DNA of 64,000 bases from Candidatus Saccharimonadota bacterium (GTDB lineage: Bacteria > Patescibacteriota > Saccharimonadia > Saccharimonadales > SZUA-47): NCBI GenBank assembly GCA_016700315.1, contig CP065013.1:449449-513448 (forward strand), in the 5' to 3' direction. The position numbers and the translations under genes are program-made. The notes beneath the pieces are model-generated. The model had not been told where the DNA came from. It did not search any database and saw only the letters and a program-made list of their open reading frames with translations. The stretch's first letter is position 1, and every line of letters begins with the position of its first letter. This document shows, one piece after another, positions 22,635 to 40,335 of the stretch.

Positions 22635-22637
22635 GGC

Positions 22638-25600
22638 TTAGGTATCTTTCTCGCTAAAATCAAGCTTCGGCAGGTTACTAACAATGTCTACTGTCTGTAC
22701 GCTTACATTGATGACACTTAACAGTAGATCAAGTATATATCTAGGGTTCCCAACCTCTTTTGCCCAATCATTCGGGTCATTTGTGATGCCTGTCTTCTTG
22801 TCGGTTCTTACTTGATACCTATCAATAATCCACTCTATTGCACTCTTGCCATTTACTACATACTCATACGCTTTTTCAGGAATATCATCGATTGTTATCT
22901 GGGCATTGTATATTATCTTATCCTTGTGCTCCTTATTCGGGAATTTCATCTTCTGGACAATATAATTATTGTGTTGGGTACCGGTCACCTTAACGCCTTC
23001 ATAAGGCAGAACGTCTTCATAATTTACATGTATGTCAGCGAGCTTTCGGCCAGCCTTACTGAATTCCCAGAATTCTTCGGGTTTTTCTACTAGTGGCAAT
23101 CTTGGTAGCATTTTTGATAAGTCATTTGCGAATTCATGCCGATAATCAGTGCTATGAAGTAAGCCATACACATAGTAGAATATATCCTCTTTAGAAATAT
23201 TCTGGTTAGGGTACTGGTCATTAGCTGTCCGTAAGACGTAATCGCTGATACCGTCTTTTCTCACATAATCATCGTTAGTTTCGCCAAATAATGACGGCAT
23301 TGAGTTATTTATCTTTTCATAAAGATGTAGCGGGTAGCACTGTGAATTCTGCATAACTTGGTAGTCTGAGACAAGATTAGTCATAAGTGAGGAAAACTCC
23401 TTTGAACCACCAATGCCAGTAACACAAATCGTGTAGTTCTCATTTGTGCCTACTGAAATGTCATTCCATTTACCAGGGCGGTAAATTGTAGGTTTTGATC
23501 TCACCATGAACTGCTTAAAGAACGGTCTATAAACCACCGTGTCCAGGATGTCTTTTTTAACTCGATTTTCAACCCAATAGTCATTAGATATTTTTGAATT
23601 GTATACCTTTGCATCACCTTTGCTTTGTATGCCCATTGACTTTACATTGAACACAGATTTGTCCTCGTCGTTTTCTTGCAGGGGCAGAAATTTCTTGAAG
23701 GAATCGTTTCTTAGATTAACCCAATCTGCATGTTCATTTGGATGTATAGTCTGCCAGCTCATTACAGATTCTACAGTTCTAAATTCACTAATCGTTTTTA
23801 ATTTCTGGTCTTGTGATAAATAATCGCCAATATCGAGGTAGTATATTTTAGCTTTATCGCTTTGATTTTCTTGGTCTTTAACCAATAATGTAATTGATAT
23901 TGGCGTTCTCGTACCAGCACCAAAAACGTTGCCAGCTTCACGCCTACGCTGTTCACCACTAGTGCGTGCATTACCTCTAAGATTAAAGACGTATATGCTA
24001 GTAAATTCCTCTTCTAGACTTTTCCTGAAACCAGACATAGCTGAGTTCTCAAGCCAAGCACCATTGCTTACGAAACCAACTACGCCACCCTCATCACCTA
24101 AGCGATCTGAAGCCCAGCGGTACGCCTTAATGTAAGAATCGTATAACTTATTTTTGTTATTCGTATCAACACTTTTTGCATAGGTTTTTTCTATTCTTTT
24201 TTCTAGCTTAGGGTATTTCTGATTCTGTGCATTGTCATCAGTAGATTTTTGCCCTGCAGAATATGGAGGGTTACCGATGATTACCCTTAGTGGAGACTTC
24301 TTTTGGCGTTGTAGGCGTTCTGAGTTCTCTGCGAGGGCTTCACTGAACAATTTAGCATTGTCATCTTCTTCATAGAGCTGGAATGTATCTGTAAGTACTA
24401 CGCCTTCGAAGCTATCATACTCGTCTTTTTCTAGTAAATCATGGTAGGCGTTCTCGATATTCACTGCCGCAATATAGTAAGCAAGCAGTACGATTTCATT
24501 TGCGAATATTTCTTGTTTATATTTTCTCTCTAGGTCTCTAGGTTCGATAACGCCACTTTGGAGTAATCTCGTAATGAATGTACCCGTGCCTGTAAATGGG
24601 TCTAAGATATTTACATTTTCATCACTTAAGCTTCTGCCGAACTCTTTCTTGAGCACATCATTTACTGAATGAATGATAAAGTCCACAACCTCAATAGGCG
24701 TATAAACAATTCCTAATTGTTCTACCATTTTAGGAAATGCAGTCTTAAAGAATTTGTCGTATAGCTCAACAATGATTCGTTGCTTACCCTCAGAGTTGTC
24801 TATGCCTTCGGCACGCTTACGAACTGACTTATAGAACCCTTCTAATAGTTCTGCGTCAACATCTTCAATTGCTTTAGCTTCAATGGCATCTAAAGCTTTT
24901 TGCATAGAGATTGATACAGCATTGTTTTGCACAAACGAGTAACCCTCAAACAAAGCCTCAAAAACTGGTTTAGTAATAATGTGCTGAGAAAGCATTTCAA
25001 TAGCTTGCTGTTCTGTAATGGAAGGATTGATATTTTTTTGTAGACCCTTAACAAACTGGCGGAATGCCATGTGTGCTTCGTCATCTTCGTCAACAATTTT
25101 TGTAATCCGAATTATTTGACGTTCTGCAATATCTGCTACATTTTTAGCCCAGTTCTCCCAATACTGACGATCACCAACTTTCTGCACCATCTTTGCGTAT
25201 ATTGCTGTTTGTAGTGCATCAAATTGCAGACCGAGCTGAGTGTTTTTAACTTGTGCCTGTGCTGATTCAAGATCGTTGAAGGGGTCACCATCACCATCTG
25301 GATCTGGACGACCAACTAATATTTGATCTGGACGGTTTTTATTTAGATCAATCTTGTTGACGGTCGCGTTAAAACGGTCGTCGTGAGCTCGCAATGCATT
25401 AAGTACGGTCCAGACAACTTTATATCTTTCATTATCATCGAGGGCTTTTTCTGGCTCGACATCCGTTGGCACTACAATTGGTATAACTATGTAACCATAT
25501 TTTTTTCCAGGACTTTTACGCATTACACGCCCAACAGACTGTACTACATCTACTTGTGAATTTCGTGCAGACAGGAACATTACGGCGTCTAGAGACGGAA

Positions 25601-27329
25601 CATCTACACCTTCACTAAGACAACGCACGTTAGTCAATACCCGTGCTTCTTGTTGATTTTCAAGCTCTTCCTTAAGCCATGACATTAGTTCGTCTCGTTG
25701 TGTAGCTGACATAGCACCATCGATATGCTTTGAATTGAGCTGGACGAGTGTTTCTCGTTTTAACTCTGGAACAGATTCTGAGTAGGTGTCACTAATAGCA
25801 TTGAAAGAGTCGGTTATTTTTTTAGAGGTCTTAATATTTGAAGTAAAAGCTACTGCTCGTCTCATAGGTTCAGGATCATAAATATGAACCGTGCCTTTTT
25901 CACCCAATATTTGCTTGGACATAGCATTGATACAACCAATAAGCTTTGATGCGTCGTCAACGCTAATTTCGTGTTCTGGATTTTGTATGACTTTTTGGAC
26001 TTCTGGGGTTACATCGTTTTCTGAAAGAGTGAGGATTAAAACCTTATAGTCTGACAAAAGATCATGTTCTACAGCCTCTCCAAAGCCTATACGATAGATC
26101 TCTTTTCCGTACAATGCCTCGTCATCCATAGAGCAAATAACTGCTGAGGAATCTTCAGCTTTACGCTTTGATTCCTCGCCATACAAGCGAGGGGTAGCTG
26201 TCATGTAGATACGCTTGTCAGCATTTATGAATGCATTGTCATGAATTTTTACAAAAGCAGATTCATCATTACCTGCAAGAGTTACTCCAGTAGTTCTATG
26301 TGCTTCATCGCATATTACTAGATCAAATTTTTCGTACTTACTACCTATGCTCTCAAGTCGTTTTTGTGCTTTAGAGATAACATCTATTGACTGATAGGTT
26401 GAGAATACGACAGTCAGCCCCTTCTTATTAGTCATTTCAAAGTATTCAAATTGCTTTAGTATTTGATTGACATTAGTAGAAGCCGGAATAGCTAGATCAA
26501 CAATGCTAAATGTCTGGGCATCTTCATTCTTCTTTTTGTCTTTAGTAATCTCAGAGTCCGAACATATTGCTATCGGGTTTATTTCTTCCTTTGCATCAGC
26601 AGTCCATTCACGCAGTGTCTGACCAAGTAAGGCAATAGATGGGACAAGGAACAACACAACTCCATCTTTTTGCGTTATTTCTTCTGCGATACGTAAACTC
26701 GTAAATGTCTTACCTGTACCGCAAGCCATTATCAATTTTCCTCTACTGTTTCCTTGAGAGAAATAATCCATAGACTTGTGAAGCGCATCACGCTGATGAA
26801 ATCGAAGTTCCTTTTTGGCGGTACGTGCCTTGTCGCCATAGATGCCCTGATCTATCTTTAACCAGTCAACTGGAGCCTCTTCCAGATCATTTAGGCTTAA
26901 CCTAGTAACTGGTGGGTCTTGATGTAGTAAAGTCTCATTTGCCGTAGAAGTCCATTTATTGGTAGTCGATACCCATAAGCGATAGCTAAACTTAATTCGG
27001 TTTTTATCTGCATCTTCAAAACTTTTGCCTGAAGTAGACAGGAATGTATCAACTTCTTCTTTACTAATACCTGAGTCTGCCTGATAGCACTTACATTGGA
27101 TGGCCCAGTATTCACCCTCAGTAGTGAGTGCAACTAAATCTATCCCGACATCTTTTCCGCCGAATGAACTTCTATGTGGAAATTCATTCCAAAGCCATAT
27201 TTTTTCTAGATGCCTATACTTTGGGTCAGTATAAAAGTAGGCTTGAATTAGGCGTTCAAATCTTGTTCCTTTATCTCGTTCCGAGTGAGCTAAATTGCGG
27301 TATTTTTCTAGAATTTTGTTGAATGCCAT
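22638..27329 (-). CDS. Type ISP restriction-modification enzyme (Mrr-like nuclease + SF2 translocase + N6-adenine methyltransferase + target-recognition domain)
   Basis: 1563 aa; GIDLVA...AIQCKCY nuclease core, ACGTGKT / ICDEAH helicase motifs, GNPPYSAGQ methylase motif IV; architecture and size match LlaGI-type enzymes. Confidence 0.85.
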   Translation of the reverse strand: MAFNKILEKYRNLAHSERDKGTRFERLIQAYFYTDPKYRHLEKIWLWNEFPHRSSFGGKDVGIDLVALTTEGEYWAIQCKCYQADSGISKEEVDTFLSTSGKSFEDADKNRIKFSYRLWVSTTNKWTSTANETLLHQDPPVTRLSLNDLEEAPVDWLKIDQGIYGDKARTAKKELRFHQRDALHKSMDYFSQGNSRGKLIMACGTGKTFTSLRIAEEITQKDGVVLFLVPSIALLGQTLREWTADAKEEINPIAICSDSEITKDKKKNEDAQTFSIVDLAIPASTNVNQILKQFEYFEMTNKKGLTVVFSTYQSIDVISKAQKRLESIGSKYEKFDLVICDEAHRTTGVTLAGNDESAFVKIHDNAFINADKRIYMTATPRLYGEESKRKAEDSSAVICSMDDEALYGKEIYRIGFGEAVEHDLLSDYKVLILTLSENDVTPEVQKVIQNPEHEISVDDASKLIGCINAMSKQILGEKGTVHIYDPEPMRRAVAFTSNIKTSKKITDSFNAISDTYSESVPELKRETLVQLNSKHIDGAMSATQRDELMSWLKEELENQQEARVLTNVRCLSEGVDVPSLDAVMFLSARNSQVDVVQSVGRVMRKSPGKKYGYIVIPIVVPTDVEPEKALDDNERYKVVWTVLNALRAHDDRFNATVNKIDLNKNRPDQILVGRPDPDGDGDPFNDLESAQAQVKNTQLGLQFDALQTAIYAKMVQKVGDRQYWENWAKNVADIAERQIIRITKIVDEDDEAHMAFRQFVKGLQKNINPSITEQQAIEMLSQHIITKPVFEALFEGYSFVQNNAVSISMQKALDAIEAKAIEDVDAELLEGFYKSVRKRAEGIDNSEGKQRIIVELYDKFFKTAFPKMVEQLGIVYTPIEVVDFIIHSVNDVLKKEFGRSLSDENVNILDPFTGTGTFITRLLQSGVIEPRDLERKYKQEIFANEIVLLAYYIAAVNIENAYHDLLEKDEYDSFEGVVLTDTFQLYEEDDNAKLFSEALAENSERLQRQKKSPLRVIIGNPPYSAGQKSTDDNAQNQKYPKLEKRIEKTYAKSVDTNNKNKLYDSYIKAYRWASDRLGDEGGVVGFVSNGAWLENSAMSGFRKSLEEEFTSIYVFNLRGNARTSGEQRRREAGNVFGAGTRTPISITLLVKDQENQSDKAKIYYLDIGDYLSQDQKLKTISEFRTVESVMSWQTIHPNEHADWVNLRNDSFKKFLPLQENDEDKSVFNVKSMGIQSKGDAKVYNSKISNDYWVENRVKKDILDTVVYRPFFKQFMVRSKPTIYRPGKWNDISVGTNENYTICVTGIGGSKEFSSLMTNLVSDYQVMQNSQCYPLHLYEKINNSMPSLFGETNDDYVRKDGISDYVLRTANDQYPNQNISKEDIFYYVYGLLHSTDYRHEFANDLSKMLPRLPLVEKPEEFWEFSKAGRKLADIHVNYEDVLPYEGVKVTGTQHNNYIVQKMKFPNKEHKDKIIYNAQITIDDIPEKAYEYVVNGKSAIEWIIDRYQVRTDKKTGITNDPNDWAKEVGNPRYILDLLLSVINVSVQTVDIVSNLPKLDFSEKDT

Positions 27330-28624: not shown

Positions 28625-29449
28625 TCAAGATAGTTCTGTTCTGTAAAGATGCACAGCCTGTATATGAGAGCACTCCATCGGTTCGTCATAGGGTTCTTTG
28701 CCGTTTGATAACGGACAATCGCAGCTCAAGCCATTCATGGGCCTACAACGGACTAGATGTTCGTTAGTGTTACCCTTAACGGTATATGTGTCTGCCTCAA
28801 CTACACTAATATTACCTTCCAGAAAATACCTGATTGCATTAGTAAATAATTTGTTAAACGATATGAATGAATTTTTGTTTAAGTAGTTGTTGGCGTATTC
28901 TACGACAGCCTTCTGAATTGCTGTAGACAGTTCACTGAATAGATCATTATTATGCAGAGCAATGCTCAATGATTTTTTAATTTGGTTTCTATTCGCTACG
29001 GTTAGTTGAAATAGCACGATGTCATCCCTACCTAAGATATTCTTCGTGAACTCATCACTATAAACGCTCGTAATGGTTGCTAAGAAATCATTCGGAGCGT
29101 CTAGGTAGGTTTCAACGAGTGATCTAAACTCGTTAGAGTAAAGTTGCATTTGGCCTACCTCGTCAAGATACAAAAGCTCGCCAGTCTTTGGATGCGATAA
29201 GCTTCGAGTAAATTGTGCCAAGACTTCTGGGTGAACATAAAAACGCCCGACTTGCAGGCTTGTATGGTTCTGTGTTTGAGCCAAAACTGCACGTAGACCG
29301 TTCATATCCTCTACAACAAACCCTATTCTGTGATGGTCTTTGACAAATTCTTTTGTTATAAAACCACGCCGAGGAGAAACGCCGGCAACTAGCTCGCTTA
29401 ATATGGTGCTCTTTCCGCTTTTTGGTTTGCCGGTAATCAAGAGTTTCAT
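28625..29449 (-). CDS. THEP1-like P-loop NTPase fused to a C-terminal SWIM zinc finger
   Basis: MKLLITGKPKSGKST Walker A, LYLDEVGQMQL Walker B; CDCPLSNG...CSHIQAVHLY (CxC...CxH). Confidence 0.65.
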   Translation of the reverse strand: MKLLITGKPKSGKSTILSELVAGVSPRRGFITKEFVKDHHRIGFVVEDMNGLRAVLAQTQNHTSLQVGRFYVHPEVLAQFTRSLSHPKTGELLYLDEVGQMQLYSNEFRSLVETYLDAPNDFLATITSVYSDEFTKNILGRDDIVLFQLTVANRNQIKKSLSIALHNNDLFSELSTAIQKAVVEYANNYLNKNSFISFNKLFTNAIRYFLEGNISVVEADTYTVKGNTNEHLVRCRPMNGLSCDCPLSNGKEPYDEPMECSHIQAVHLYRTELS

Positions 29450-29500
29450 CTACTCATGGTATCATGCAAATCATCTGTTAGAACGTGATAAAATACCTAA

Positions 29501-30133
29501 ATGATTAATATAACTGCAACAACTGCAAACGAAGCTTGGATCAGCACATTTAAAACTCTTCTTGAAGAAGGAGATGCTACAGGTAATGAAAAGTACCTGC
29601 GTGATGAAACTACGCTCATAGAAATTACTGACCCCGAGGTCATAGGGGCGGACGCACGATTTCCAATGGCCCAAGCTGACCTAGATGTAATCAATAGATA
29701 CATCTATACCGGCGAGAACGAAGACAGTGTCGTTCACGATTGGACAAAACTTTACTACCATCGTGCCTTTGACGAGCCAAATTCACAAATAGAGTTCTTG
29801 ATTGCAAATCTAAATGCAGAACGCCCAGTCGGTGAAGCGCAGATATCAATGTGGGATAAAAACATTGATCAAGGTCAAAAAGTTTCGCCCTGCACCCAAA
29901 TAATCTGGGCGCGCATTAAGCATGGAAAGCTGGAGTTGCACGTTCACGCTAACTCCTCAGATGCATATAAAAAGTTGTTGATGAATATGCTTGAATTTAT
30001 CTCTTTACAACATTACATAGCTGAACGAATAGACAGACCGGTTGGTAACTATTATCATTTCTTAGACTCGTGCCACTTACACCTGAAAGATTCTGAGAAA
30101 ATTGAATTGCTCCAGACACAATTACAAGGTTAA
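29501..30133 (+). CDS. short thymidylate-synthase (ThyA)/pyrimidine-nucleotide hydroxymethylase-like protein
   Basis: 210 aa; aligns by eye to the ThyA core: ISMWD...VSPCTQIIWARIKHGKLELHVHANSSDAY...DSCHLHL versus E. coli SAWN...[29 protein letters not shown]...GDTHLY (catalytic Cys conserved). Confidence 0.65.
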   Translation: MINITATTANEAWISTFKTLLEEGDATGNEKYLRDETTLIEITDPEVIGADARFPMAQADLDVINRYIYTGENEDSVVHDWTKLYYHRAFDEPNSQIEFLIANLNAERPVGEAQISMWDKNIDQGQKVSPCTQIIWARIKHGKLELHVHANSSDAYKKLLMNMLEFISLQHYIAERIDRPVGNYYHFLDSCHLHLKDSEKIELLQTQLQG

Positions 30134-30172
30134 AACTTTGCATTACGCGCTCCAATATGTTATAAATTAGTC

Positions 30173-31384
30173 ATGAGTAGCGAGGTTTTCCTTCCCGGGA
30201 TTGCTGAATTTGATGAACATCCAATTCCTGGCGCTCCCGCAATTAACGATACCTATCGTGAATCTTTAAGCCGCCTCGTGTTATTACAAGATCGAGAAGT
30301 GACCCACTTCTATGGTTGTCAGCTGGACTTAGACGAAGATAAAGATGTGTGGATGAGTCCTGTTGAGGTGGATGACGGAGAAAGCTTTTCCTACTTCCAG
30401 ATACTTTACGTAAATACTACGCCTCAAGAAGCTTTCAATAACCCTAAGCTACCGGTTTCATTGCTTGAGGTTGACGAAGCAAGCTACAAATTAACGCCAG
30501 CTGAGCACCCTGGGTATGAGCAGCTGATGAGCCAGTTCATCGGCGACAGAAAACATGTTCTAATCCGCCAATGCAACACAGGCATGGCCTATTACCCTAG
30601 AAGTATTACCCCTACACGGGATCGTACTAAATCTTCGGAGCACTTAGAGAAAATTATTGCGGTCACGGGATTCCACGAGCCAGAAGTTAGCATTACACTT
30701 TGCAAGCCGTCAGAAAAAGAAGATGTCTCTATTAAAACCAGTATGCTGCAAACAGTTCACGCCCGCAAATATCCTTTTGCGAGCGGCGAAGTGCATTCGT
30801 ACGGCCTAATTCTTGATAATGACCCGTGGAAATATTACGAAATTTTTACCCCTCGACGTATCGAGAAAATGTCAGGCAAAGACCTTCTCGTAAGAATTGA
30901 TTCAGGCTGTGATATCGGCCAAATTTACGATGATAGAGGATGTGACTGTCGTGAGCAGTTGCATACTGCACTTACGGATATCAAAGAGCTAGGCAATGGC
31001 GCTGTAATTCATATACCTTCTCAAGATGGAAGAGGCTTCGGCGCGGCAACTAAAATGGAGACAGAGGGTTTAAAGCGCGGTATTAAAGTTGCCACCAACC
31101 ACAATAATCTTCAAGCAGTTGACACTATCACTGCCGCCCAATTAATTTTGGGCGCAGAGTTTGATATTCGCAGCTATGAAGGCGCAGGAAAACTTTTGGG
31201 CATGATAGGCGTCGAGTCAATCATTCTACAAACAGACAACCGTTTGAAAGCCGAGGGCTTAGCGGCTGGTGGAATAAATGTTACACGTCGGCCAACAAAC
31301 ACCACTGGCGCACGTGGAGCGCTACATCACGTTGAAGCCAAGCACCGACACGGGGACATCTATTACGGCAAGGATGAGGAATAA
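30173..31384 (+). CDS. GTP cyclohydrolase II-like domain protein with unknown ~190-aa N-terminal domain
   Basis: LLVRIDSGCDIGQIYDDRGCDCREQL...SQDGRGFG matches the RibA zinc site (C...CxC) and core; N-terminal half unrecognised, no RibB motifs. Confidence 0.65.
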   Translation: MSSEVFLPGIAEFDEHPIPGAPAINDTYRESLSRLVLLQDREVTHFYGCQLDLDEDKDVWMSPVEVDDGESFSYFQILYVNTTPQEAFNNPKLPVSLLEVDEASYKLTPAEHPGYEQLMSQFIGDRKHVLIRQCNTGMAYYPRSITPTRDRTKSSEHLEKIIAVTGFHEPEVSITLCKPSEKEDVSIKTSMLQTVHARKYPFASGEVHSYGLILDNDPWKYYEIFTPRRIEKMSGKDLLVRIDSGCDIGQIYDDRGCDCREQLHTALTDIKELGNGAVIHIPSQDGRGFGAATKMETEGLKRGIKVATNHNNLQAVDTITAAQLILGAEFDIRSYEGAGKLLGMIGVESIILQTDNRLKAEGLAAGGINVTRRPTNTTGARGALHHVEAKHRHGDIYYGKDEE

Positions 31385-31386
31385 GC

Positions 31387-32277
31387 ATGGAAAGATTAGG
31401 TCCAGGGAGTTTGTATTATGCACCTGCAGCTAGTGGCATAGAAAAGATTCGAAATCGGTGGCTAGAAATTGATTCCATGGCTGGCGTTGGCATTGACCCT
31501 GACGTCAATAAAATTCCTAGCGAGATCTGGGATGAAGTTGGCGGTAGAAGTAACTTAGCAGACGGCATGCTTCTTTTTAATCAGCAGGTCATAGATGCCA
31601 CAGCAGAATATGCAGTGGATTTTAAAGTAAACTCAAATTTCTTCCAGGGTGAATTAGGGCGACGCGCGCTAGCCGGTACTTTCGATTACATAAAAGCAAA
31701 TCATCCCAAAGTTCTTCGGGTGTGTGATGGTAAGTTTGCGGATGTAGGCCACACAGCTGACAAAATTGCTGAAGAGATATTCGGTGAGCTAGATGCTGAC
31801 GCAGTGCTATTGAACCCGTATATGGGCTTAGACGCTATCGAGCCATTCGTGAAATGGAAGAATAAGCTTGTCGTGCTTTGCATAAATACATCAAACCCGT
31901 CAGCTCAAGAAGTCCAAGGACTGACGCTCGCTGACGGTAATCCATTGTGGAGACATATTCTACGAGAAAGCATGGACTCTTGGAACTATAATGGGAACAT
32001 TCTCCCAGTACTCAGCGCTACTCATAAAGACAATCTTTTGGGAGTACGAGAAGTTGTCGGTGACACACCTATTCTGTTAGCAGGTATTGGTACGCAAGGT
32101 GGCAGCCTTGAAGAAAGCGTGCCAATATGTCTCGATACTAATGGCTATGGTCTTATGATAAGCGCATCACGTGCGATACTGTACCCGGAACGATGCGCTG
32201 GCGAGACATTGCAAGACGCATCTCGTCGCTCAATTCAAGACTTGCGTATGAGTATCAATGTAGCCAGGGCAGCCTAA
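31387..32277 (+). CDS. orotidine-5'-phosphate decarboxylase family (type 2-like) protein
   Basis: DPDVNKIP, FKVNSNFF, CDGKFADVGHTA (DxKxxDIxxT-like), LAGIGTQGG phosphate loop. Confidence 0.65.
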   Translation: MERLGPGSLYYAPAASGIEKIRNRWLEIDSMAGVGIDPDVNKIPSEIWDEVGGRSNLADGMLLFNQQVIDATAEYAVDFKVNSNFFQGELGRRALAGTFDYIKANHPKVLRVCDGKFADVGHTADKIAEEIFGELDADAVLLNPYMGLDAIEPFVKWKNKLVVLCINTSNPSAQEVQGLTLADGNPLWRHILRESMDSWNYNGNILPVLSATHKDNLLGVREVVGDTPILLAGIGTQGGSLEESVPICLDTNGYGLMISASRAILYPERCAGETLQDASRRSIQDLRMSINVARAA

Positions 32278-32918
32278 TGAATGAATTCGTATTTTCAGCT
32301 AGCCACCGGCAAGCGGAGATCAATAAGACGTTGCGACGTAATCTTACGAAGAGCCGGCTATTTGTATTGCTGCTCGGGCCATCAGCAACGGGTAAGTCTA
32401 CGTTGATCCAAGAGCTAAACGCCCAGTCCACTGACACTACATTCGAATATGTAAAGCCAATTATCACAAGACCGAACCGGCCTAACGAGTCCGATAAAAT
32501 AAGCGTCTCTGATACCGAGTTCGATACTTTGCAGAGGCAGGGCGAGTTTGTAGTTGTGAACGCCCTTTACGGAGTCCGTTATGGCACACCTTTACAGGGA
32601 ATCACTTCACCGCTAAGCAGAAACAATACGCCTATACTTGATTACCCGCTGGATACGGTACACGCTCTCCAACGTCCTGAGTACGACACACTTAAACTGT
32701 ATATATATCCACCTTCATTGGAAACATGGCGTAGACGAATTGAATCAAGCGGCCGGAATTTGAATGGGAGACTTGAGGCTGGCACTAGAGAACTCGGATC
32801 ATTGGCGATGGCAGGCTTCAATCATCCCGATATTGACATAAGCATAGTTAACGCCGAAGGTGCTGTGGTCGAAGCTGCACATGATATTCTCGACGTTATA
32901 CAACAGGTTGTCGTGTGA
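32277..32918 (+). CDS. guanylate kinase-like nucleoside-monophosphate kinase
   Basis: GPSATGKSTLI P-loop, ITRPNRPNE, ALYGVRYGTP; start ATG overlaps the upstream stop (TAATG). Confidence 0.65.
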   Translation: MNEFVFSASHRQAEINKTLRRNLTKSRLFVLLLGPSATGKSTLIQELNAQSTDTTFEYVKPIITRPNRPNESDKISVSDTEFDTLQRQGEFVVVNALYGVRYGTPLQGITSPLSRNNTPILDYPLDTVHALQRPEYDTLKLYIYPPSLETWRRRIESSGRNLNGRLEAGTRELGSLAMAGFNHPDIDISIVNAEGAVVEAAHDILDVIQQVVV

Positions 32919-32921
32919 TAA

Positions 32922-33302
32922 CTACTGCTCTTGAGATCTAGCTTCAGCTTGCTCGGGGCTACGGTAGGTATGTATAGAACCGGGGATGATTCTGTAAGCT
33001 GCACGATTCTCGGGTTCATATACCATTGGCTTGGCTAGGACATTGGCGCACGCAGTACATGCAAGAGAGCCAGCTTCCTTCACAGTCGCAGAAGTCAGTT
33101 CTGCTCGCTCTTCAACAAGCTCTGGTGGCCAAACGATTCGATCAGCATAACAGCGCAGCAAGCGGCCTGGCCCATCTTTTTGATAGACCATGGCTGGCTC
33201 CTCACAGTTACCGCATGCGATATACAGAAATTTTGACGGACCCCCACGAGATTTCGCGTATCGGTCTTTCTTAGGTTTAAACTTGTCTTGAGGGAATTCC
33301 AT
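32922..33302 (-). CDS. hypothetical CxxC...CxxC zinc-ribbon protein
   Basis: ACGNCEEP ... CTACANV Cys pairs; no family recognised. Confidence 0.45.
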   Translation of the reverse strand: MEFPQDKFKPKKDRYAKSRGGPSKFLYIACGNCEEPAMVYQKDGPGRLLRCYADRIVWPPELVEERAELTSATVKEAGSLACTACANVLAKPMVYEPENRAAYRIIPGSIHTYRSPEQAEARSQEQ

Positions 33303-33412: not shown

Positions 33413-33557
33413 AACTACAGGGATGAAATGAAAGAACCATCCTTTCGGACGGTTCTAACGTTTGTAACTTACGAACTGTAAATTAGTATTTCTCTGACCA
33501 AAGAGAGAAGTTAGGCACAGGTCTAGGAACTAGGTCTACGTTCTTCTCTGCTTGGTC

Positions 33558-33861
33558 TGGCTCGGGAGGCCAGATTCGAACTGGCGACCAATTGGTTACA
33601 CTTATTCATTATTTTCATAATGGCGTGGACTATATCATCATCCTTACGGATGTAGGGCGCTATTTGGACGATTATTGTTAGGCTCACATCCTAGTCTCTG
33701 AACCTTCCGAACTCTTTTAGCCTAAGTTCGGCTTGGCTGCTGATTACCATATAGCTTTGATGCTATTTTAGGCTTCCAGCAATTCACCCTATTTTCACTA
33801 CTTGGTTTCCCAAGTAGGCTGCCTCTGACAGCCAACTGCGCTACCGCTGCGCTACTCCCGA
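33558..33861 (-). tRNA. intron-containing tRNA, anticodon GTT (Asn) after splicing; exons 33861..33828 and 33598..33558
   Basis: Joined exons give a canonical cloverleaf. Acceptor is TCGGGAG/CTCCCGA, D arm GCGC-AGCGGTA-GCGC, anticodon stem GTTGG/CCAAT with loop CTGT|TAA. T arm is GCCAG-TTCGAAT-CTGGC, followed by discriminator G and an encoded CCA. Confidence 0.8.
33599..33827 (-). ncRNA. group I intron (IC3-like, 229 nt) in the anticodon loop
   Basis: 5' exon ends in U, pairing as U.G in P1 (exon GGCUGU with intron GCAGCC). P2 hairpin CUACUUGG-GAAA-CCAAGUAG. The core GCCAAGCCGAAC...GUUCGGAAGGUUCAGAGACUAGGAUG resembles the Azoarcus/cyanobacterial tRNA intron core as I recall it. The intron ends in G. 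Confidence 0.7.
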
Positions 33862-34100
33862 ATATGTGTTTTAATGAACTCTCTTCCTCTGTAAGATTTA
33901 AGCTGCTTTTCGCGCTTTAATGCTTCAGAGCGAGTGGCAACTGATTCTTTAAAAATCAATTCCCATTTGCCCTCAAACCTAGATGTAAAACCAGCAAAAG
34001 TGTGAAGATTATGCTCTTTGATACGCTTATCTATATCGCTGGTTTGACCAATATAAACTTTGTCTAATAATCGATTGTAAATCGCATATACAACATACAC
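33852..34100 (-). CDS. small GIY-YIG nuclease family protein
   Basis: VYAIY...VYIGQT...KRIKEHN...EALKREKQLK; GTG start; last 10 nt overlap the tRNA 5' acceptor stem. Confidence 0.8.
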   Translation of the reverse strand: MYVVYAIYNRLLDKVYIGQTSDIDKRIKEHNLHTFAGFTSRFEGKWELIFKESVATRSEALKREKQLKSYRGREFIKTHIRE

Positions 34101-34157: not shown

Positions 34158-34473
34158 TTAAATTGCAATGTGCGATTCGGCCGTCAGTTAGCGGATCTCC
34201 GAATACAGATGTAAATTATAGCTGCTACATCTTGTGACGTCAAATGTCGGCGGGCTAGACGCTATGCTACCGAGATAGCCACAGCCAAAGGCAAACAAAC
34301 ACTTTACGGGCTGTGGATAACTGCTTTATTTACAGCAAACATTAGCGGTATACTGTATTTTAGTACATTATCTCGCGGGGGCGTTTATCAAAATACAGAC
34401 AAAAACTACTGTAATAACAGTAATAATCGGCTTCCTGCTCGCGGCGGGTTATTTTGTCCTGCGCCCAAACCGG

Positions 34474-37400
34474 GTGCCGCTACAGGGATTGCTCAGAAAA
34501 GCTGATGGCAAGACAATTGCCCAAGATGGCTACTATGACATGCGCGTAGTGGCGTTCAACCCCGTTAGTGGTCAGCAGATTTTATCTCAGGATTTCCAAG
34601 ATGTGGTTGTCAAAGACGGCCAATACACTCTGCCGGTTAGCATACCCAAGTTCGCAGATACAGGCTCGTCAACTTTTCAGGTATGTCATAGTGGTGACCC
34701 AAGCGCTGCAGAAGATGGGCTAGATGCCGAGGATATCCCAACGGGCTGTAAAGACCCTGTAGTCGAAAAGAAGGTATTTGTAGAAGCTGAGTGTCCTCAG
34801 ACCCTCAATATCAGCTCAAATAATTTTCTTTATCGTTTGATTGGCAATCGAGACGGGTCAATTTCTGGCAATGGCTGTACTTATGTTGACTCGGGCAATA
34901 ACTTCTTTGCACAGACGGACAAACAAGCTCCGACTGTCGTTGGAGTTCAAGGTGCAAAAGGTGATTCAGGCTCAGTTGGCCCACAAGGTCCGGCTGGTCC
35001 GCAGGGCGAAAAAGGTGCTGATGGGGCAGCAGGAGTAAATGGAACTAATGGCACAAATGGCGCCCAGGGCCCGGCGGGAGCTCAAGGGCCGTCCGGCGAT
35101 CCAGCAACCGATGACCAAACACTTAGTTTTGGCGGAGCAAGCATTCTTTCTATTGCCGGCGGTAATTCAGTCGATTTATCTAGCCTTAAAGACAATACTG
35201 ATGTTTTAGCATCACTTGGTTGTACTGCCGGACAGATCGCGCAGTACAATGGTAGCGCTTGGGCGTGTGCTAGTCCTGCTGCTTCGAGTGACAGCCAAAC
35301 TTTGAGCCTCGTAGCCAATACGCTGTCTATTCTAAATGGTAATTCAGTTAGTTTGGCCAGTTACCTAGACAACACCGATGCTCAAAGTATTTCGGTCGCA
35401 TCAAATGTGCTGTCTATTAGCGGTAATGCCAGCACGGTGAATCTGGCCAGTTACCTAGACAACACTGATGCGCAAACACTAAGCTACTCAACAGGCACGC
35501 ACCTTCTGTCCATTAGTGGTGGTAATACTGCTGATCTGTCTAGCCTGCTTGATAACACAGACGCGCAGGGCATTTCGCTTGCCGGCAACACGCTGTCGAT
35601 TAGTGGTAACGCCAGCACGGTGAATCTGGCAGGCTACCTTGATAACACCGACGCGCAGAGCATTTCTTTGGTTGGCGATACGTTGTCTATATCTGGCAGC
35701 GCTGGCACAGTTAGCTTGGCAGGGTATTTGGACAATACAGATGTACTCGCCGGCCTGTCCTGTGGGCTGAACCAAATTGCCAAATGGAACGGTAGTGCCT
35801 GGGCCTGTGCTAGTGACAGCGGGCTAACGAGTGAAGTTGACGGAGTTATTGGCAACGAGGTTACCGATGCAACTGCCGGTGGTGGCCTAACGCGCGCGGG
35901 TCTGGGAACGAATGTGTCGCCGTATACACTCGGCATTGCCGCAGGTGGAGTTACCAATGCCATGCTTTCAAATTCTGCTTTGACAGTTAGCGCTGGCACT
36001 GGCCTTACGGGCGGAGGCTCGGTCTCGCTAGGTGGCACGGTGACGCTTAGCTCAACCCTTGGCACAGACATAGATTCTTCAGAAATCGTCAACGGTACCA
36101 TAGCCACCGCTGACATTGCCGCAAGCGCCATAACTGCAGCCTTAGTTAGCGACGGCACGCTCACAACTGCCGATCTTTCGGCTACGGCTGGTATCACCAA
36201 TGCACAGCTGGCTAACTCCAGCATCACGGTGACAGCTGGAGCTGGTTTATCTGGCGGTGGGGCAGTAGCTTTGGGCAGTTCGGTAACTTTGACATCGACC
36301 CTCGGAACGGCCATCGACACCACGGAGATTACCGACGGCACAATTTTGTTTGCCGACATTGCCCAAAACGGCTGTAGCAACGGTCAAGTACTCAAATACA
36401 ACACTGGCTGGACATGCGCTGCCGACAACGACACCACCTACACCGCTGGAACAGGTATTGCTGTATCGGGTCTCAATGTCATATCTTCTACGCTCGGCAC
36501 CGACATAGATTCTTCAGAAATCGTCGATAGTACTGTCGCGCTGATTGATCTAGCCGCCGATTCAGTTAATTCTTCCAAAATCGTCAATGGTTCAGTTGCT
36601 AATGCTGATCTAGCCAACTCCGCCGTCACCATTACCGCTGGCACTGGTTTATCTGGCGGCGGGGCGGTCACTCTAGGTAGTTCAGTTACCCTAAACCTAG
36701 CCAATGACTTTGGTGCAAGCATTGATTCTAGTGAAATAACTGATGGTACAGTCGCCCTAGCCGATCTAGCTAACAGTTCAGTTAACTCAAGTAAGATAGT
36801 AGACGGTTCAATTGCCACAGTCGATGTTGCTGACGGAGCCATTACGCTAGCCAAACTAGCAAACTGTTCTAGCGACGGCCAAATCCTTAAATACACGGTC
36901 GTCGGTGGCTGGGCCTGTGCGGCTGACAGCGGGCTAACGAGTGAAGTTGACGGAGTTATTGGCAACGAGGTTACAGATGCAACTGTCAGTGGTGGTTTAA
37001 CCAGGTCTGGCAGCGGCACAGGCGTGTCGCCATATACACTAGGGATTGCCGCTGGCGGTGTGACTAATGCAATGCTAACCAATTCGGGTGTCACAGTCAC
37101 TGCTGGAACAGGGCTAACAGGCGGCGGCTCAGTCTCGCTAGGTGGCACAGTTACGCTAAATTCCTCACTCGGAACAGCCATAGATAGTACAGAAATTACC
37201 GATGGTACGATAACTTCGGCTGACCTTTCGGCTACGGCCGGTATTACCAACGCTCAACTGGCCAACAACGCAGTTACAGTTACCGCTGGCTCTGGTTTGT
37301 CGGGCGGCGGGGCAGTTGCACTGGGGAGTTCGGTAACTTTGACTTCTTCTTTAGGCACCGCAATAGATACCAGCGAAATTACTGACGGCACAATTTTGTT

Positions 37401-40335
37401 TGCCGACATTGCCCAGAACGGCTGCTCGACGAATCAGGTTATGCAGTGGAATGGTTCGGCCTGGGCATGTGGCTCTTTAGCGGGGTCACAAAACTTGTTC
37501 GAAACAATTTCTGCACCAGGAGGAACAGCTTCTGTAGCAGACTCGGCTACAGACACATTAGCATTTGCTAACGGTGCCGGCGTCACAATTACGAGTGACG
37601 GAACGACCGATACAATCACCATCGCTGCAACTTTAGGCACGGCGATAGATTCCAGTGAAATTGTCGATGGTACCATCACAACTAGCGACATTTCGGCCAC
37701 CGCCGGTATTACCAACGCTCAACTGGCTAATTCGGCTGTGACTGTAACAGCTGGTACGGGTCTGTCTGGCGGTGGATCGGTATCATTAGGTGGCACAGTT
37801 ACTTTGAACCTTACGAATGATTTTGGGGTAAGCATTGATTCCAGCGAGATTACCAATGGCACTATTACTCTGGCCGACCTTGCCCAGAACTCTTGTGGGG
37901 ATGGGCAGGTTATTAAGTGGAGCAATGGCTCAACAGCCTGGGTATGTGCTAACGACATCGACACCCAGCTTAGCGAGGCCCAAGTCGACACCTACGTAGC
38001 AAACAATGGCTACTTAACTAGTGAAGTTGACGGCTCAACTTCTAACGAAATCCAGGACCTGTCTCTCGCGGGGGATACATTGGCACTAAGCGGCGATGGC
38101 ACAACGGTTGACCTTAGCGCATACATGGACAATACCGATGTTCTGGCCGGGCTGTCCTGTGGGCTGAACCAAATTGCCAAATGGAATGGCAGTGCGTGGG
38201 CCTGCGCGGCCGATGCAGATACCGATACGCAAGACCTATCGCTTGCTGGCAATACGCTCAGCCTGGTGGCGGGCGGCAGCGTCGACCTTACGGCTTTTAT
38301 GGACAACACCGACTCTCAGGACTTATCGCTCGCAGGCAATATTTTGAGCTTGAGTGGCGACGGCACGACCGTAGACCTTAGCGGCTACCTTGACGACACG
38401 GTACTTAGCGAGGCCCAGGTCGATACCTATGTGGCGAACAATGGCTATCTGACCAGTGAAGTCGACGGTAGCACGACCAACGAACTGCAAAATGTCTTTA
38501 CGACGATCGCGACCCCGGATGCTGGCAACCCGGCCGCCGACACGACGACCGACACGCTGACGCTGGCAAACGGCAGCGGCGTTACAATTACCAGCAACGG
38601 CACCACCGACACGATCACGATTGCGGCGGCACTCGGCACCGACATTGACTCGACCGAGATCGTGAACGGAACGATCACCTCAACCGACATTTCTGGTACG
38701 GCTGGCATCACCAACGGCCAGCTGGCCAATTCATCGCTCACGGTTAGCGCGGGTAACGGCTTACTTAACGGTGGTAGCGTTTCGCTTGGCGGCACCACCA
38801 CACTCAACATTGGTGCAGGCAACGGCATTACCGTCAACGCCGATGACATCGCTGTCAGAACAGCAGCTAGTGCCGACGGGCTATCTTCTACGACTAGCTC
38901 CGGCTCGGGTATTGAAGCGCTTGCTACGGGGGTTGCGCTCCTCCAGGGCTGCTCGGATGCTCAGGTCTTAAAATGGAATGAAACGACCGATGTCTGGGCC
39001 TGTGCTGCCGACAATGACACGATTATTTCAGAGGCTACGGTCGAAAGCTACATCTTCGACGCTGATAACACCGGTACGCTCAGTAGCGGCACCTTGGCGC
39101 TAGGTAGCCTTAGTTACACCGGTACACTCAGCGATACACAAATTTCTGACACGCTAACAATTGGCGCCACTAGCACGGTGAGCGACAGCGCCTTGAGCGC
39201 CAACGTCACGAAGCTGGGCAGCGATATTAGCTCTGCCGAAATCGCGAACGGCACGATTGCCGCGGCGGATGTCGCACCCGACGCCCTTGACTTTACCGAA
39301 CTAAACGACACCATGTCGCTCGACGTAGCTACTTCGATTTCGCTCGGAGCCAACAACCTGACCTTTACGGCTGGTGGCGCTGGCAATGTCGTAACAAACC
39401 TATCATCCACCGGCGATTTCATCGTACAAGATAACGGCACCACAGCATTTATTGTTCAAGATAATGGCGGTGTCTACATCGGCGACCCAGCCTCAGCTAT
39501 CGCAACTGGCTCACTTCTGGTGCTCGACAGCATTACTACTGCGCCTGGTAGCCCAGTCAACGGTGCCATGTACTACGATTCTGGCCTGGCCAAGTTTCGC
39601 TGTTACGAATCAAGCACCTGGAAAGACTGTATCTCGGCCCCAGGTAGTCAAAATGACACGGCGGCAACCTACTATTTCTTCAGCGAATTTACGGGTAGTC
39701 CTACGACAACAGGCCAAGACGTATACGCCACAAACAGCGGAACAGGTGCGGCGACGGCTGCGAGTGCCAACGTTGCCGCCAATCGCCCGGGTATTTTCCG
39801 CTCTACCACAGGTACTACCGCTACGGGGCGCACGGCATTTGCTTCAAATCTGACTGCCTTTGCGCTCGGCGGCGGAGCGATGTCGTACGAGACGGCGGTA
39901 AACATTGCCACGCTTTCCACAGGAACGGAGAGATACCAGTTGGTCATCGGTCTGTTTGATACCGCGACCGCAGCTAATCAAGTGGATGCAGTTTCATTTG
40001 TGTACGACGAAGGCGGTGTTTCAACCGGATCGGCTGCGAGCGCCAACTGGCAAATCAGAACAGCCAGCAACTCAACGCGTAGCTGGACCACAACAACAAC
40101 GGCCGTAGCGGCTGCAACCTGGTACAAATTGCGCGTCGAAGTCAATGCCGCCGGTACCTCCGCCACCTTCTACATCAATGGCACTAATGTCGGAACCATC
40201 GCCACCAACATACCAACGGGTACGGCAAGGGCGCTCGGCTTTGGGCATCTGATGATAAAATCCGTCGGCACCACCGCCCGAACCATGGACATCGACTACA
40301 TGAAAGCCGAACAATCATTCACTACATCAAGATAA
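34474..40335 (+). CDS. giant repetitive surface fibre/adhesin-like protein with a collagen-like triplet region and a C-terminal lectin/LamG-like domain
   Basis: 1953 aa. G-X-Y repeats span aa 157-210 (nt 34942-35103). Tandem D-N-T-D-(A/S)-Q...LS(L/I)SG motifs and recurrent C-x3-Q-(I/V)-x-(K/Q)-(W/Y)-N-...-W-x-C motifs. First canonical start is GTG 34474, but an in-frame signal-anchor lies upstream. Confidence 0.8.
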   Translation: MPLQGLLRKADGKTIAQDGYYDMRVVAFNPVSGQQILSQDFQDVVVKDGQYTLPVSIPKFADTGSSTFQVCHSGDPSAAEDGLDAEDIPTGCKDPVVEKKVFVEAECPQTLNISSNNFLYRLIGNRDGSISGNGCTYVDSGNNFFAQTDKQAPTVVGVQGAKGDSGSVGPQGPAGPQGEKGADGAAGVNGTNGTNGAQGPAGAQGPSGDPATDDQTLSFGGASILSIAGGNSVDLSSLKDNTDVLASLGCTAGQIAQYNGSAWACASPAASSDSQTLSLVANTLSILNGNSVSLASYLDNTDAQSISVASNVLSISGNASTVNLASYLDNTDAQTLSYSTGTHLLSISGGNTADLSSLLDNTDAQGISLAGNTLSISGNASTVNLAGYLDNTDAQSISLVGDTLSISGSAGTVSLAGYLDNTDVLAGLSCGLNQIAKWNGSAWACASDSGLTSEVDGVIGNEVTDATAGGGLTRAGLGTNVSPYTLGIAAGGVTNAMLSNSALTVSAGTGLTGGGSVSLGGTVTLSSTLGTDIDSSEIVNGTIATADIAASAITAALVSDGTLTTADLSATAGITNAQLANSSITVTAGAGLSGGGAVALGSSVTLTSTLGTAIDTTEITDGTILFADIAQNGCSNGQVLKYNTGWTCAADNDTTYTAGTGIAVSGLNVISSTLGTDIDSSEIVDSTVALIDLAADSVNSSKIVNGSVANADLANSAVTITAGTGLSGGGAVTLGSSVTLNLANDFGASIDSSEITDGTVALADLANSSVNSSKIVDGSIATVDVADGAITLAKLANCSSDGQILKYTVVGGWACAADSGLTSEVDGVIGNEVTDATVSGGLTRSGSGTGVSPYTLGIAAGGVTNAMLTNSGVTVTAGTGLTGGGSVSLGGTVTLNSSLGTAIDSTEITDGTITSADLSATAGITNAQLANNAVTVTAGSGLSGGGAVALGSSVTLTSSLGTAIDTSEITDGTILFADIAQNGCSTNQVMQWNGSAWACGSLAGSQNLFETISAPGGTASVADSATDTLAFANGAGVTITSDGTTDTITIAATLGTAIDSSEIVDGTITTSDISATAGITNAQLANSAVTVTAGTGLSGGGSVSLGGTVTLNLTNDFGVSIDSSEITNGTITLADLAQNSCGDGQVIKWSNGSTAWVCANDIDTQLSEAQVDTYVANNGYLTSEVDGSTSNEIQDLSLAGDTLALSGDGTTVDLSAYMDNTDVLAGLSCGLNQIAKWNGSAWACAADADTDTQDLSLAGNTLSLVAGGSVDLTAFMDNTDSQDLSLAGNILSLSGDGTTVDLSGYLDDTVLSEAQVDTYVANNGYLTSEVDGSTTNELQNVFTTIATPDAGNPAADTTTDTLTLANGSGVTITSNGTTDTITIAAALGTDIDSTEIVNGTITSTDISGTAGITNGQLANSSLTVSAGNGLLNGGSVSLGGTTTLNIGAGNGITVNADDIAVRTAASADGLSSTTSSGSGIEALATGVALLQGCSDAQVLKWNETTDVWACAADNDTIISEATVESYIFDADNTGTLSSGTLALGSLSYTGTLSDTQISDTLTIGATSTVSDSALSANVTKLGSDISSAEIANGTIAAADVAPDALDFTELNDTMSLDVATSISLGANNLTFTAGGAGNVVTNLSSTGDFIVQDNGTTAFIVQDNGGVYIGDPASAIATGSLLVLDSITTAPGSPVNGAMYYDSGLAKFRCYESSTWKDCISAPGSQNDTAATYYFFSEFTGSPTTTGQDVYATNSGTGAATAASANVAANRPGIFRSTTGTTATGRTAFASNLTAFALGGGAMSYETAVNIATLSTGTERYQLVIGLFDTATAANQVDAVSFVYDEGGVSTGSAASANWQIRTASNSTRSWTTTTTAVAAATWYKLRVEVNAAGTSATFYINGTNVGTIATNIPTGTARALGFGHLMIKSVGTTARTMDIDYMKAEQSFTTSR

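Follow-up and report, generated by a model that had tools for sequence, protein, structure and literature searches.

On the minus strand of the 64,000-nt stretch of Candidatus Saccharimonadota bacterium analysed here (assembly GCA_016700315.1, contig CP065013.1, positions 449,449 to 513,448 of the forward strand; hereafter the window), the 304 nt from 33861 to 33558 consist of two tRNA exons and an intervening sequence of 229 nt, and the spliced product would be a canonical tRNA-Asn(GUU). The gene is made up of the following parts, with the grounds for each in parentheses:

33828-33861, minus strand: 5' exon of tRNA-Asn(GUU), 34 nt, tRNA positions 1-35, ending in U35 (sequence, ARAGORN, identity with a published entry, Table S3, discussed below).
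33599-33827, minus strand: group I intron, 229 nt, without a homing endonuclease open reading frame (ORF), with the omega G at 33599 (Rfam, covariation, published boundaries).
33558-33598, minus strand: 3' exon of tRNA-Asn(GUU), 41 nt, from U36 to the encoded CCA (sequence, ARAGORN, identity with Table S3).

When joined, the exons (75 nt) were identified by ARAGORN as tRNA-Asn(gtt), with an acceptor stem of 7 bp, a D stem of 4 bp, an anticodon stem of 5 bp containing a single G.U pair and a T stem of 5 bp. The exon sequences are of the Patescibacteria type of tRNA-Asn, which speaks against a cyanobacterial host, and the body of the tRNA has U1-A72 and G73. Consistent with these exons, five proteins encoded in the window match NCBI entries in the range QQS65374.1 to QQS65400.1 exactly, all of a Candidatus Saccharibacteria bacterium. 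The insertion point, between anticodon nucleotides U35 and U36, is set by the U.G pair of helix P1 and the omega G. An earlier reading of the letters alone (the original prediction) had described exons of 34 and 41 nt, a cloverleaf with encoded CCA and an insert of 229 nt, all of which were found on the minus strand at the coordinates it gave. No endonuclease ORF lies inside the 229-nt intron, and the sole listed ORF touching it (33523-33687, 54 amino acids, GTG start) runs into the 3' exon and its flank. We consider it about 95% probable that this is the sole tRNA-Asn(GUU) gene of GCA_016700315.1 and that it is split between U35 and U36 by a 229-nt ORF-less group I intron.

The group I identity of the insert was supported by Rfam, as the original prediction had proposed to check: RF00028 (Intron_gpI) matched 33839-33606 on the minus strand with 95.3 bits (gathering score 50, expected value 2.8e-23), over the whole model (positions 1-253 of 253), and this was the sole Rfam match in the 64-kb window. 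Homologues were then sought, in one genome per prokaryotic species, with a pattern for the intron-to-exon junction (J8/7-P7 core GATGANATAGTCC, a gap of 15-45 nt and TGTAACCRAT). At least 120 species genomes match this pattern; among the matches listed, 110 are tRNA-Asn(GTT) genes split after CUGU with both exons mapped, their introns being 194-640 nt in length. The window intron and 49 distinct introns of at most 282 nt from other species genomes were aligned with MAFFT (n=50), and pairs were counted on a hand-built structure in which the P3/P7 pseudoknot was written in separate brackets. The helices of the window intron, with the basis of each, are:

33817-33833, minus strand: P1, exon GGCUGU (33833-33828) with intron GCAGCC (33822-33817), with the U35.G pair at the 5' splice site (alignment).
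33799-33816, minus strand: P2 hairpin, UACUUGG-GAAA-CCAAGUA, 7 bp (covariation).
33628-33791, minus strand: P3-P7-P8 catalytic core with the P3/P7 pseudoknot (covariation); P3 33791-33785/33659-33653, P7 33696-33692/33632-33628, P8 33652-33648/33643-33639.
33702-33781, minus strand: P4-P5-P6 domain (covariation; P5a from the window sequence alone); P4 33781-33776/33743-33738, P5 33773-33771/33748-33746, P5a 33766-33762/33755-33751, P6 33737-33735/33704-33702, P6a 33731-33726/33712-33707.
33666-33691, minus strand: extra, P7.1-like hairpin with stem GGAUG/CGUCC and loop UGAGCCUAACAAUAAU (individual folds, stem covariation).
33607-33622, minus strand: P9 hairpin, CAUUAU-GAAA-AUAAUG (covariation).

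Standard pairs occupied 89.0% of the pair cells of this structure, compared with 71.9% after shuffling, and the covariation score was 0.457, compared with 0.158 for the shuffled alignments, none of the 500 shuffles attaining the observed value. The score fell to 0.13 or less once the 3' partners were slid by 1-3 columns. Two-sided changes were found in P2, P3, P4, the base of P5, P6, P6a, P8 and P9, which are 92-100% paired. In P2 all 7 pairs show such changes and the inner 4 pairs are 97% paired; pairing reaches 96-100%, with compensatory changes, in the columns of P4, the base of P5, P6 and P6a; P3 (98.9% paired) and P8 (96.4%) each have 3 pairs with two-sided changes; and all 6 pairs of P9 have them (91.6% paired). 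P7 (GACUA/UAGUC) is invariant in all 50 introns, pairs 2-6 of P1, including the splice-site U.G, are conserved in 50 of 50, and the omega G column is G in every aligned intron. The core positions that are invariant across the intron family are all kept in the window intron. Several hallmarks named in the original prediction are thus present, namely a 6-bp P1 of GGCUGU with GCAGCC in which the exon-final U forms a U.G pair, a GAAA-capped P2, which has 7 bp and covaries, and a terminal intron G at 33599.

The same locus has been published by Nakagawa et al. (mSystems 2026, PMC13011429; preprint 2025). Their Table S3 gives the identical 304-nt sequence for GCA_016700315.1 (Saccharimonadia, minus strand) as Asn (GTT) 35/36, with the tRNA at 483006-483309 and the intron at 483047-483275, and the genome is also listed in their Table 1. 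Sequence, strand, boundaries and anticodon of this entry are identical to those of the window; the secondary structure of the intron, the flanking GIY-YIG ORF and the variable DNA downstream are not covered in that paper. According to the same table, ARAGORN and tFind both call the gene Thr (TGT) 33/34, and its best intron-less homologue is a tRNA-Asn with 96% identity over 72 nt. Table S2 of that study lists GCA_016700315.1 as a complete genome with 0 tRNA-Asn by tRNAscan-SE, ARAGORN and tFind, and with one additional 'Thr' by ARAGORN. With a published count of 0 tRNA-Asn in a complete genome, the split gene is the sole tRNA-Asn gene; the original prediction had named as a refutation another intact intron-less tRNA-Asn gene together with an untranscribed locus, and the published counts show no such gene.

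In the 4,934 complete genomes surveyed by Nakagawa et al. (PMC13011429), 28 introns were found at site 35/36, including 19 in Patescibacteria, 3 in Cyanobacteriota, 3 in Nitrospirota and single cases elsewhere. They reported that i) ARAGORN and tFind often shift the boundary of such genes by two bases, yielding Thr(UGU) with an intron at 33/34, ii) two such genes gave transcripts that spliced themselves in vitro with guanosine triphosphate (GTP), the sequenced ligated tRNA having the 35/36 junction, iii) the spliced constructs include the Saccharimonadia tRNA-Asn intron of GCA_016700035.1, iv) an omega G-to-C mutant stalls past the first step, and v) endonuclease genes are confined to introns of more than 500 bp, some 35/36 members carrying HNH genes. 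They cite the class name 'Asn.4Ug' from the tFind preprint of Williams (2020, bioRxiv 10.1101/2020.01.27.920355), which expands the split-tRNA types from four classical ones to 21. The locus of the window, its insertion site, the misannotation issue and the way in which a close relative splices have therefore already been published, and as a discovery the present analysis adds little. The original prediction had called the host tRNA and the insertion site unusual, a view now outdated, since Asn.4Ug was catalogued in 2020 and detailed in 2025/2026 and at least 120 species genomes match the junction pattern. Its central proposal, a GUU-anticodon tRNA split at 35/36 by a group I intron, is one on which Rfam, ARAGORN, covariation and the independent publication agree.

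Several observations weigh against this assignment. ARAGORN in its intron mode reported 'tRNA-Thr(tgt) i(33,229)', with the boundary at 33/34; without the intron mode, it reported zero tRNAs across the 64-kb window. P5a and the extra hairpin were 44% and 53% paired, respectively, in the global alignment, where both align poorly, and their support comes from single-sequence folds and subsets of homologues. No convincing P10 was found between the 3' exon and the 5' region of the intron. The experimental evidence of splicing comes from a relative, the intron of GCA_016700035.1.

The annotation as tRNA-Thr(UGU), with an intron between positions 33 and 34 spanning 33829-33601, is the call made by both ARAGORN in intron mode and tFind, and the shifted intron would still be preceded by U and end in G (33601). 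However, in P1 it is U35 that forms the U.G pair conserved in all 50 homologues, whereas U33 pairs with A; the exons, with U1-A72 and G73, share 96% identity with a tRNA-Asn that lacks the intron; the remaining tRNAs of the genome include some for Thr and none for Asn; and the sequenced spliced product of the 77.5%-identical relative has the 35/36 junction. On these four grounds, the two-base ambiguity between Thr and Asn is settled in favor of Asn, and we find the Thr assignment scarcely credible. It might also be supposed that the locus is a tRNA pseudogene whose intron has decayed to a remnant that no longer splices, since the experimental proof of splicing is that of a relative, no clear P10 was found, and an intron without a homing endonuclease gene has nothing obvious that would keep it as a mobile element. 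Against decay, the gene is the sole tRNA-Asn gene of a complete genome, all core helices are intact with the family-invariant core positions kept, the locus recurs without change in metagenome contigs of several different, independent samples, and the variants, both in contig L006 and in the homologues, show compensatory rather than disruptive changes. A pseudogene is thus highly improbable, and a functional split tRNA-Asn gene is the reading that we follow below.

From the established chemistry of group I introns and the parts described above, the window RNA would be expected to self-splice in the following manner. A precursor would be transcribed, probably from a promoter upstream of an overlapping GIY-YIG ORF (see below), and would end at a terminator-like hairpin at 33456-33433. 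The intron would fold into P1-P2, P4-P6 and a P3-P7-P8-P9 core with the P3/P7 pseudoknot, and its internal guide, GCAGCC, would pair with the last six nucleotides of the 5' exon. P7 would bind an external guanosine, which would attack the phosphate 3' of U35, at the site marked by the U.G wobble; the terminal G (33599) would then occupy this pocket in its turn, and the 3'-OH released at U35 would attack the 3' splice site. Ligation of ...CUGU to UAA... would restore the anticodon loop (CUGUUAA) with its GUU anticodon. As no other tRNA-Asn gene exists in the genome, splicing is required to decode the AAC and AAU codons.

The intron of GCA_016700035.1 has the same host tRNA, the same site 35/36 and the same helices as that of the window, with 77.5% identity over 236 aligned positions, and shares the single P7.1-like hairpin, with loop UGAGCC.AACAAUAAU. 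It differs in length (234 nt vs 229 nt), by compensatory changes in P2, P5a, P6a and P9, and in the loop-loop complementarity considered below (4 bp vs 7 bp); of these two introns, it is the one with experimental proof of splicing. Contig L006 (ENA ERZ15186089, ~800-965) has the same GIY-YIG protein, 5' exon and P1-P2 as the window, but its P3-P6 region matches GCA_016700035.1 instead, with compensatory changes in P3, P4 and P6a, before the contig ends within the intron. The pattern in L006 suggests recombination between intron variants. In another Saccharibacteria homologue (L093:345-632, minus strand; alignment columns ~367-405), the P8 loop includes ~35 nt that resemble a copy of part of the host tRNA-Asn, namely its T arm and the 3' strand of its acceptor stem (CTCGGCCTGGATTCGAATCCCAGCTCCCGAGCT).

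The Asn.4Ug/35-36 family as a whole occurs in Patescibacteria, Oscillatoriales cyanobacteria, Nitrospirota, Bipolaricaulota and other phyla. Like the window intron, its members are U-1/omega-G group I introns inserted past the fourth anticodon-loop nucleotide of tRNA-Asn, and they have in common with it the core elements AGAGACUA, AGCGCC and GAUGA.AUAGUCC and an intron end ...UG followed by UAACC. Some of them carry HNH endonuclease genes, unlike the window intron. Patescibacteria-type tRNA-Asn exons with a 35/36 intron were also found in a metagenome-assembled genome (MAG) labelled as a Methanosarcinales archaeon (L039) and in many MAGs labelled 'uncultured Gammaproteobacteria' (L032, L038, L052 and L064, among others). 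These taxon labels are probably binning or naming errors and do not indicate archaeal or gammaproteobacterial hosts. In BLAST searches with the 304-nt locus, the plasmid collection gave no match and the phage collection gave partial matches only, with a coverage of 13-63%, where unrelated phage genes contain group I cores; with similarity to phages that is only partial, there is no phage origin to report.

Subgroups of group I introns are defined partly by the helices P7.1 and P7.2. IC3 introns join P7 to P3' by a short segment only, extra helices at this place being a mark of subgroup IA. Phage introns of subgroup IA, such as T4 td and Twort orf142-I2, have P7.1/P7.2 between P7 and P3' and use the same catalytic mechanism. 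They differ from the window intron in having protein-coding hosts, often endonuclease ORFs, and two extra helices where the window intron has one. In the window, the insert between P7 and P3' is 30 nt in length (33691-33662) and forms a 5-bp hairpin, whose stem varies among homologues as GAGAU/AUCUC, GGGAU/AUCCC, CGGAU/GUCCG and GGGAG/CUCCC. Individual folds of 70+ homologues revealed two architectures in this region. In most members from Patescibacteria there are two hairpins, A-UCCC-GAAA-GGGA-GUA and then another stem, corresponding to P7.1 + P7.2. A single-hairpin form with a conserved loop is present in the window, other Saccharimonadia, Oscillatoriales cyanobacteria, Binatia, Nitrospiria and others, and ties the Saccharimonadia to the cyanobacterial, Binatia and Nitrospiria members. 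Where subgroup IA introns have P7.1 and P7.2, the window intron has one hairpin and most of its Patescibacteria relatives have two.

The original prediction had likened the core to the small IC3 tRNA introns of Azoarcus and cyanobacteria. The likeness of the P6-P7 segment (GCCAAGCC...GAAGGU.CAGAGACU) is real, the segment GCCAAGCC...GAAGGUUCAGAGACUA resembling the IC3 intron of tRNA-Leu of Nostoc PCC 7120, and the small size, the location in a tRNA anticodon loop and the GAAA loops on P2 and P9 would also fit kinship with the IC3 introns of Azoarcus tRNA-Ile (CAU) and Anabaena/Nostoc tRNA-Leu (UAA), which share the two-step, guanosine-initiated mechanism. The segment belongs, however, to the core that group I introns share, and the IC3 introns differ in their sites (36/37 and 34/35), in the lack of a hairpin between P7 and P3', in subgroup and in their clade of the published tree. 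In the covariance-model classification of Nakagawa et al. (PMC13011429), 25 of the 28 site-35/36 introns fall into IA, none of the tRNA introns of Patescibacteria falls into IC, and cyanobacterial 35/36 homologues are labelled IA1/IA2. Because the 30-nt insert folds into a covarying hairpin and the published classification places none of the Patescibacteria tRNA introns in IC, the IC3 assignment is unsupported, and we regard it as unlikely. By its sequence and predicted fold, the window intron is IA-like, a single-hairpin variant of the tRNA-Asn 35/36 family.

We found that the loop of the extra hairpin, AGCCUAA, is fully complementary over 7 nt to the loop of P6a, UUAGGCU (within 33666-33691 and 33707-33731, respectively). 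A complementarity of 7 bp between these loops (L6a and L7.1) was reached by 6 of 500 shuffles. In GCA_016700015.1 the loops are AGCCCAA and UUGGGUU, in which a U-to-C change is matched by an A-to-G change and the 7 bp are retained. Outside Saccharimonadia the signal is weak and within the range of the shuffles, in part owing to a crude extraction of the loops. The extra-hairpin loop probably kisses the P6a loop in the window intron, and the single-hairpin variant may be held together by this previously undescribed L6a-L7.1 kissing interaction.

On the 5' side the tRNA gene is adjoined by a small nuclease ORF, and pattern matches to a promoter and a terminator enclose the two:

34215-34243, minus strand: promoter-like TTGACG-17-TATAAT, lying upstream of the nuclease ORF (11 of 12 matches in a consensus scan; pattern match only).
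33852-34100, minus strand: GIY-YIG nuclease-domain ORF, 82 amino acids, neighbor of the tRNA (Pfam PF01541, expected value 1e-16; QQS65394.1).
33433-33456, minus strand: terminator-like hairpin ~100 nt downstream of the tRNA 3' end (consensus scan; pattern match only).

QQS65394.1 is named 'GIY-YIG nuclease family protein' by NCBI. The ORF overlaps the tRNA by its last 10 nt, its TAG stop being tRNA positions 8-10 (U8-A9-G10), and its 82-amino-acid product is an intact GIY-YIG catalytic domain alone, with no DNA-binding domain. The consensus scan detected no promoter-like site between the ORF and the tRNA, and the upstream promoter-like site may drive a shared GIY-YIG/pre-tRNA transcript. An identical GIY-YIG protein is encoded on eight metagenome contigs, which also have the split tRNA wherever they reach far enough. 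On Patescibacteria-type metagenome contigs, relatives of the GIY-YIG ORF adjoin a tRNA gene of the same strand in nearly all cases (L022, L036, L037, L071, L087, L101 and L135-L206).

A free-standing GIY-YIG enzyme next to an ORF-less intron could be taken for a homing endonuclease that moves the intron in trans ('collaborative homing'). The intact domain and the overlap with the 5' end of the tRNA would be in keeping with this, as would the finding that 8 of 111 oriented split-tRNA-Asn loci (window included) have a small GIY-YIG ORF no more than 100 nt from the tRNA, these being 8 of the 12 GIY-YIG matches in the loci; in five of the 8, ORF and tRNA 5' end have 10-22 nt in common. However, among 80 metagenome loci with GIY-YIG relatives, 42 have the ORF directly upstream of an intron-less tRNA-Asn and only 4-5 beside an intron-containing tRNA-Asn, the others including tRNA-Lys (~10), tRNA-Gln (1) and tRNA-Ile (1), and the protein consists of the catalytic domain only. 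The same syntenic slot is occupied by tRNA-Asn genes both with and without the intron. Since most of the relatives lie beside intron-less tRNA genes, the association is with tRNA genes and not with the intron, and collaborative homing is very unlikely. We tentatively propose, as a possibility that is still well short of probable, that the GIY-YIG ORF and the tRNA form a conserved co-transcribed module of Patescibacteria, involving tRNA-Asn (with or without the intron), tRNA-Lys, tRNA-Gln and tRNA-Ile. Its role could be selfish, as a tRNA-gene-linked nuclease cassette, or tied to the maintenance of tRNA or DNA. A literature search gave no description of such a module, which is weak evidence of its absence there.

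On the 3' side, DNA identity from strain to strain ends exactly at the CCA of the tRNA, beyond which three unrelated sequences were found, one in the window, one in L001 and one in the group L002/L003/L004/L007. In L003 and L007, the tRNA is directly followed by a terminator-like palindrome. Two copies of this palindrome are present in the window, at 28140-28096 (5.4 kb from the tRNA) and 17583-17540, and in front of each stands GAGCCA, the six bases with which the tRNA ends (33558-33563). The repeated GAGCCA and palindrome suggest that two cassettes, of 5.4 kb and 10.5 kb, lie in tandem behind the tRNA:

33557-28141: cassette 1, bounded by the tRNA end and a palindrome copy.
28095-17584: cassette 2, a defence cassette bounded by the two palindrome copies.

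Cassette 1 (genes at 28625-33302) encodes a nucleoside triphosphatase (PF03266), thymidylate-synthase-like, GTP-cyclohydrolase-II-like, orotidine-monophosphate-decarboxylase-like and guanylate-kinase-like proteins and a 126-amino-acid ORF product without a Pfam match. None of its proteins gave a PADLOC match, and the nucleotide-metabolism-like genes could be a base-modification cluster or an undescribed defence cluster. Cassette 2 (genes at 18116-27329) encodes a Type ISP restriction-modification enzyme of 1563 amino acids, a PIF1-like helicase, a protein with a GmrSD N-terminal domain, for which the best PADLOC matches are the candidate systems PDC-M55C and HEC-05/06, and a DUF2779 protein. 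No integrase or recombinase domain was detected in the 10 ORFs scanned between 18.1 and 33.3 kb, and a search of the rest of the window for the terminal 23 or 32 nt of the tRNA, allowing up to 3 mismatches, gave no match. The idea of an integration hotspot, voiced in the original prediction, finds partial support in the identity break at the CCA and the tandem cassettes with GAGCCA borders, but neither an integrase nor a long repeat of the tRNA end accompanies them. On the other side of the locus, an ORF of 1953 amino acids (34474-40335, plus strand) encodes triple-helix repeats of the collagen type, with an SO2946-like domain at the C terminus. BLAST of related contigs revealed internal repeats, of ~90 nt in period, at ~35.35-35.75 kb, and the content of guanine plus cytosine rises to 56% at 38-40 kb.

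These data indicate that an essential single-copy tRNA gene can escape standard tRNA finders, ARAGORN reporting either none or a Thr tRNA, and where a split tRNA is missed or misnamed in this way, completeness estimates of reduced genomes are distorted. With matches in at least 120 species-representative genomes, the 35/36 tRNA-Asn introns are far more widespread than the 28 cases known from complete genomes. Beyond the known intron, the locus offers as leads the pairing of a GIY-YIG ORF with tRNA genes, a single-hairpin form whose loop may kiss that of P6a, and variable cassettes downstream of the tRNA.

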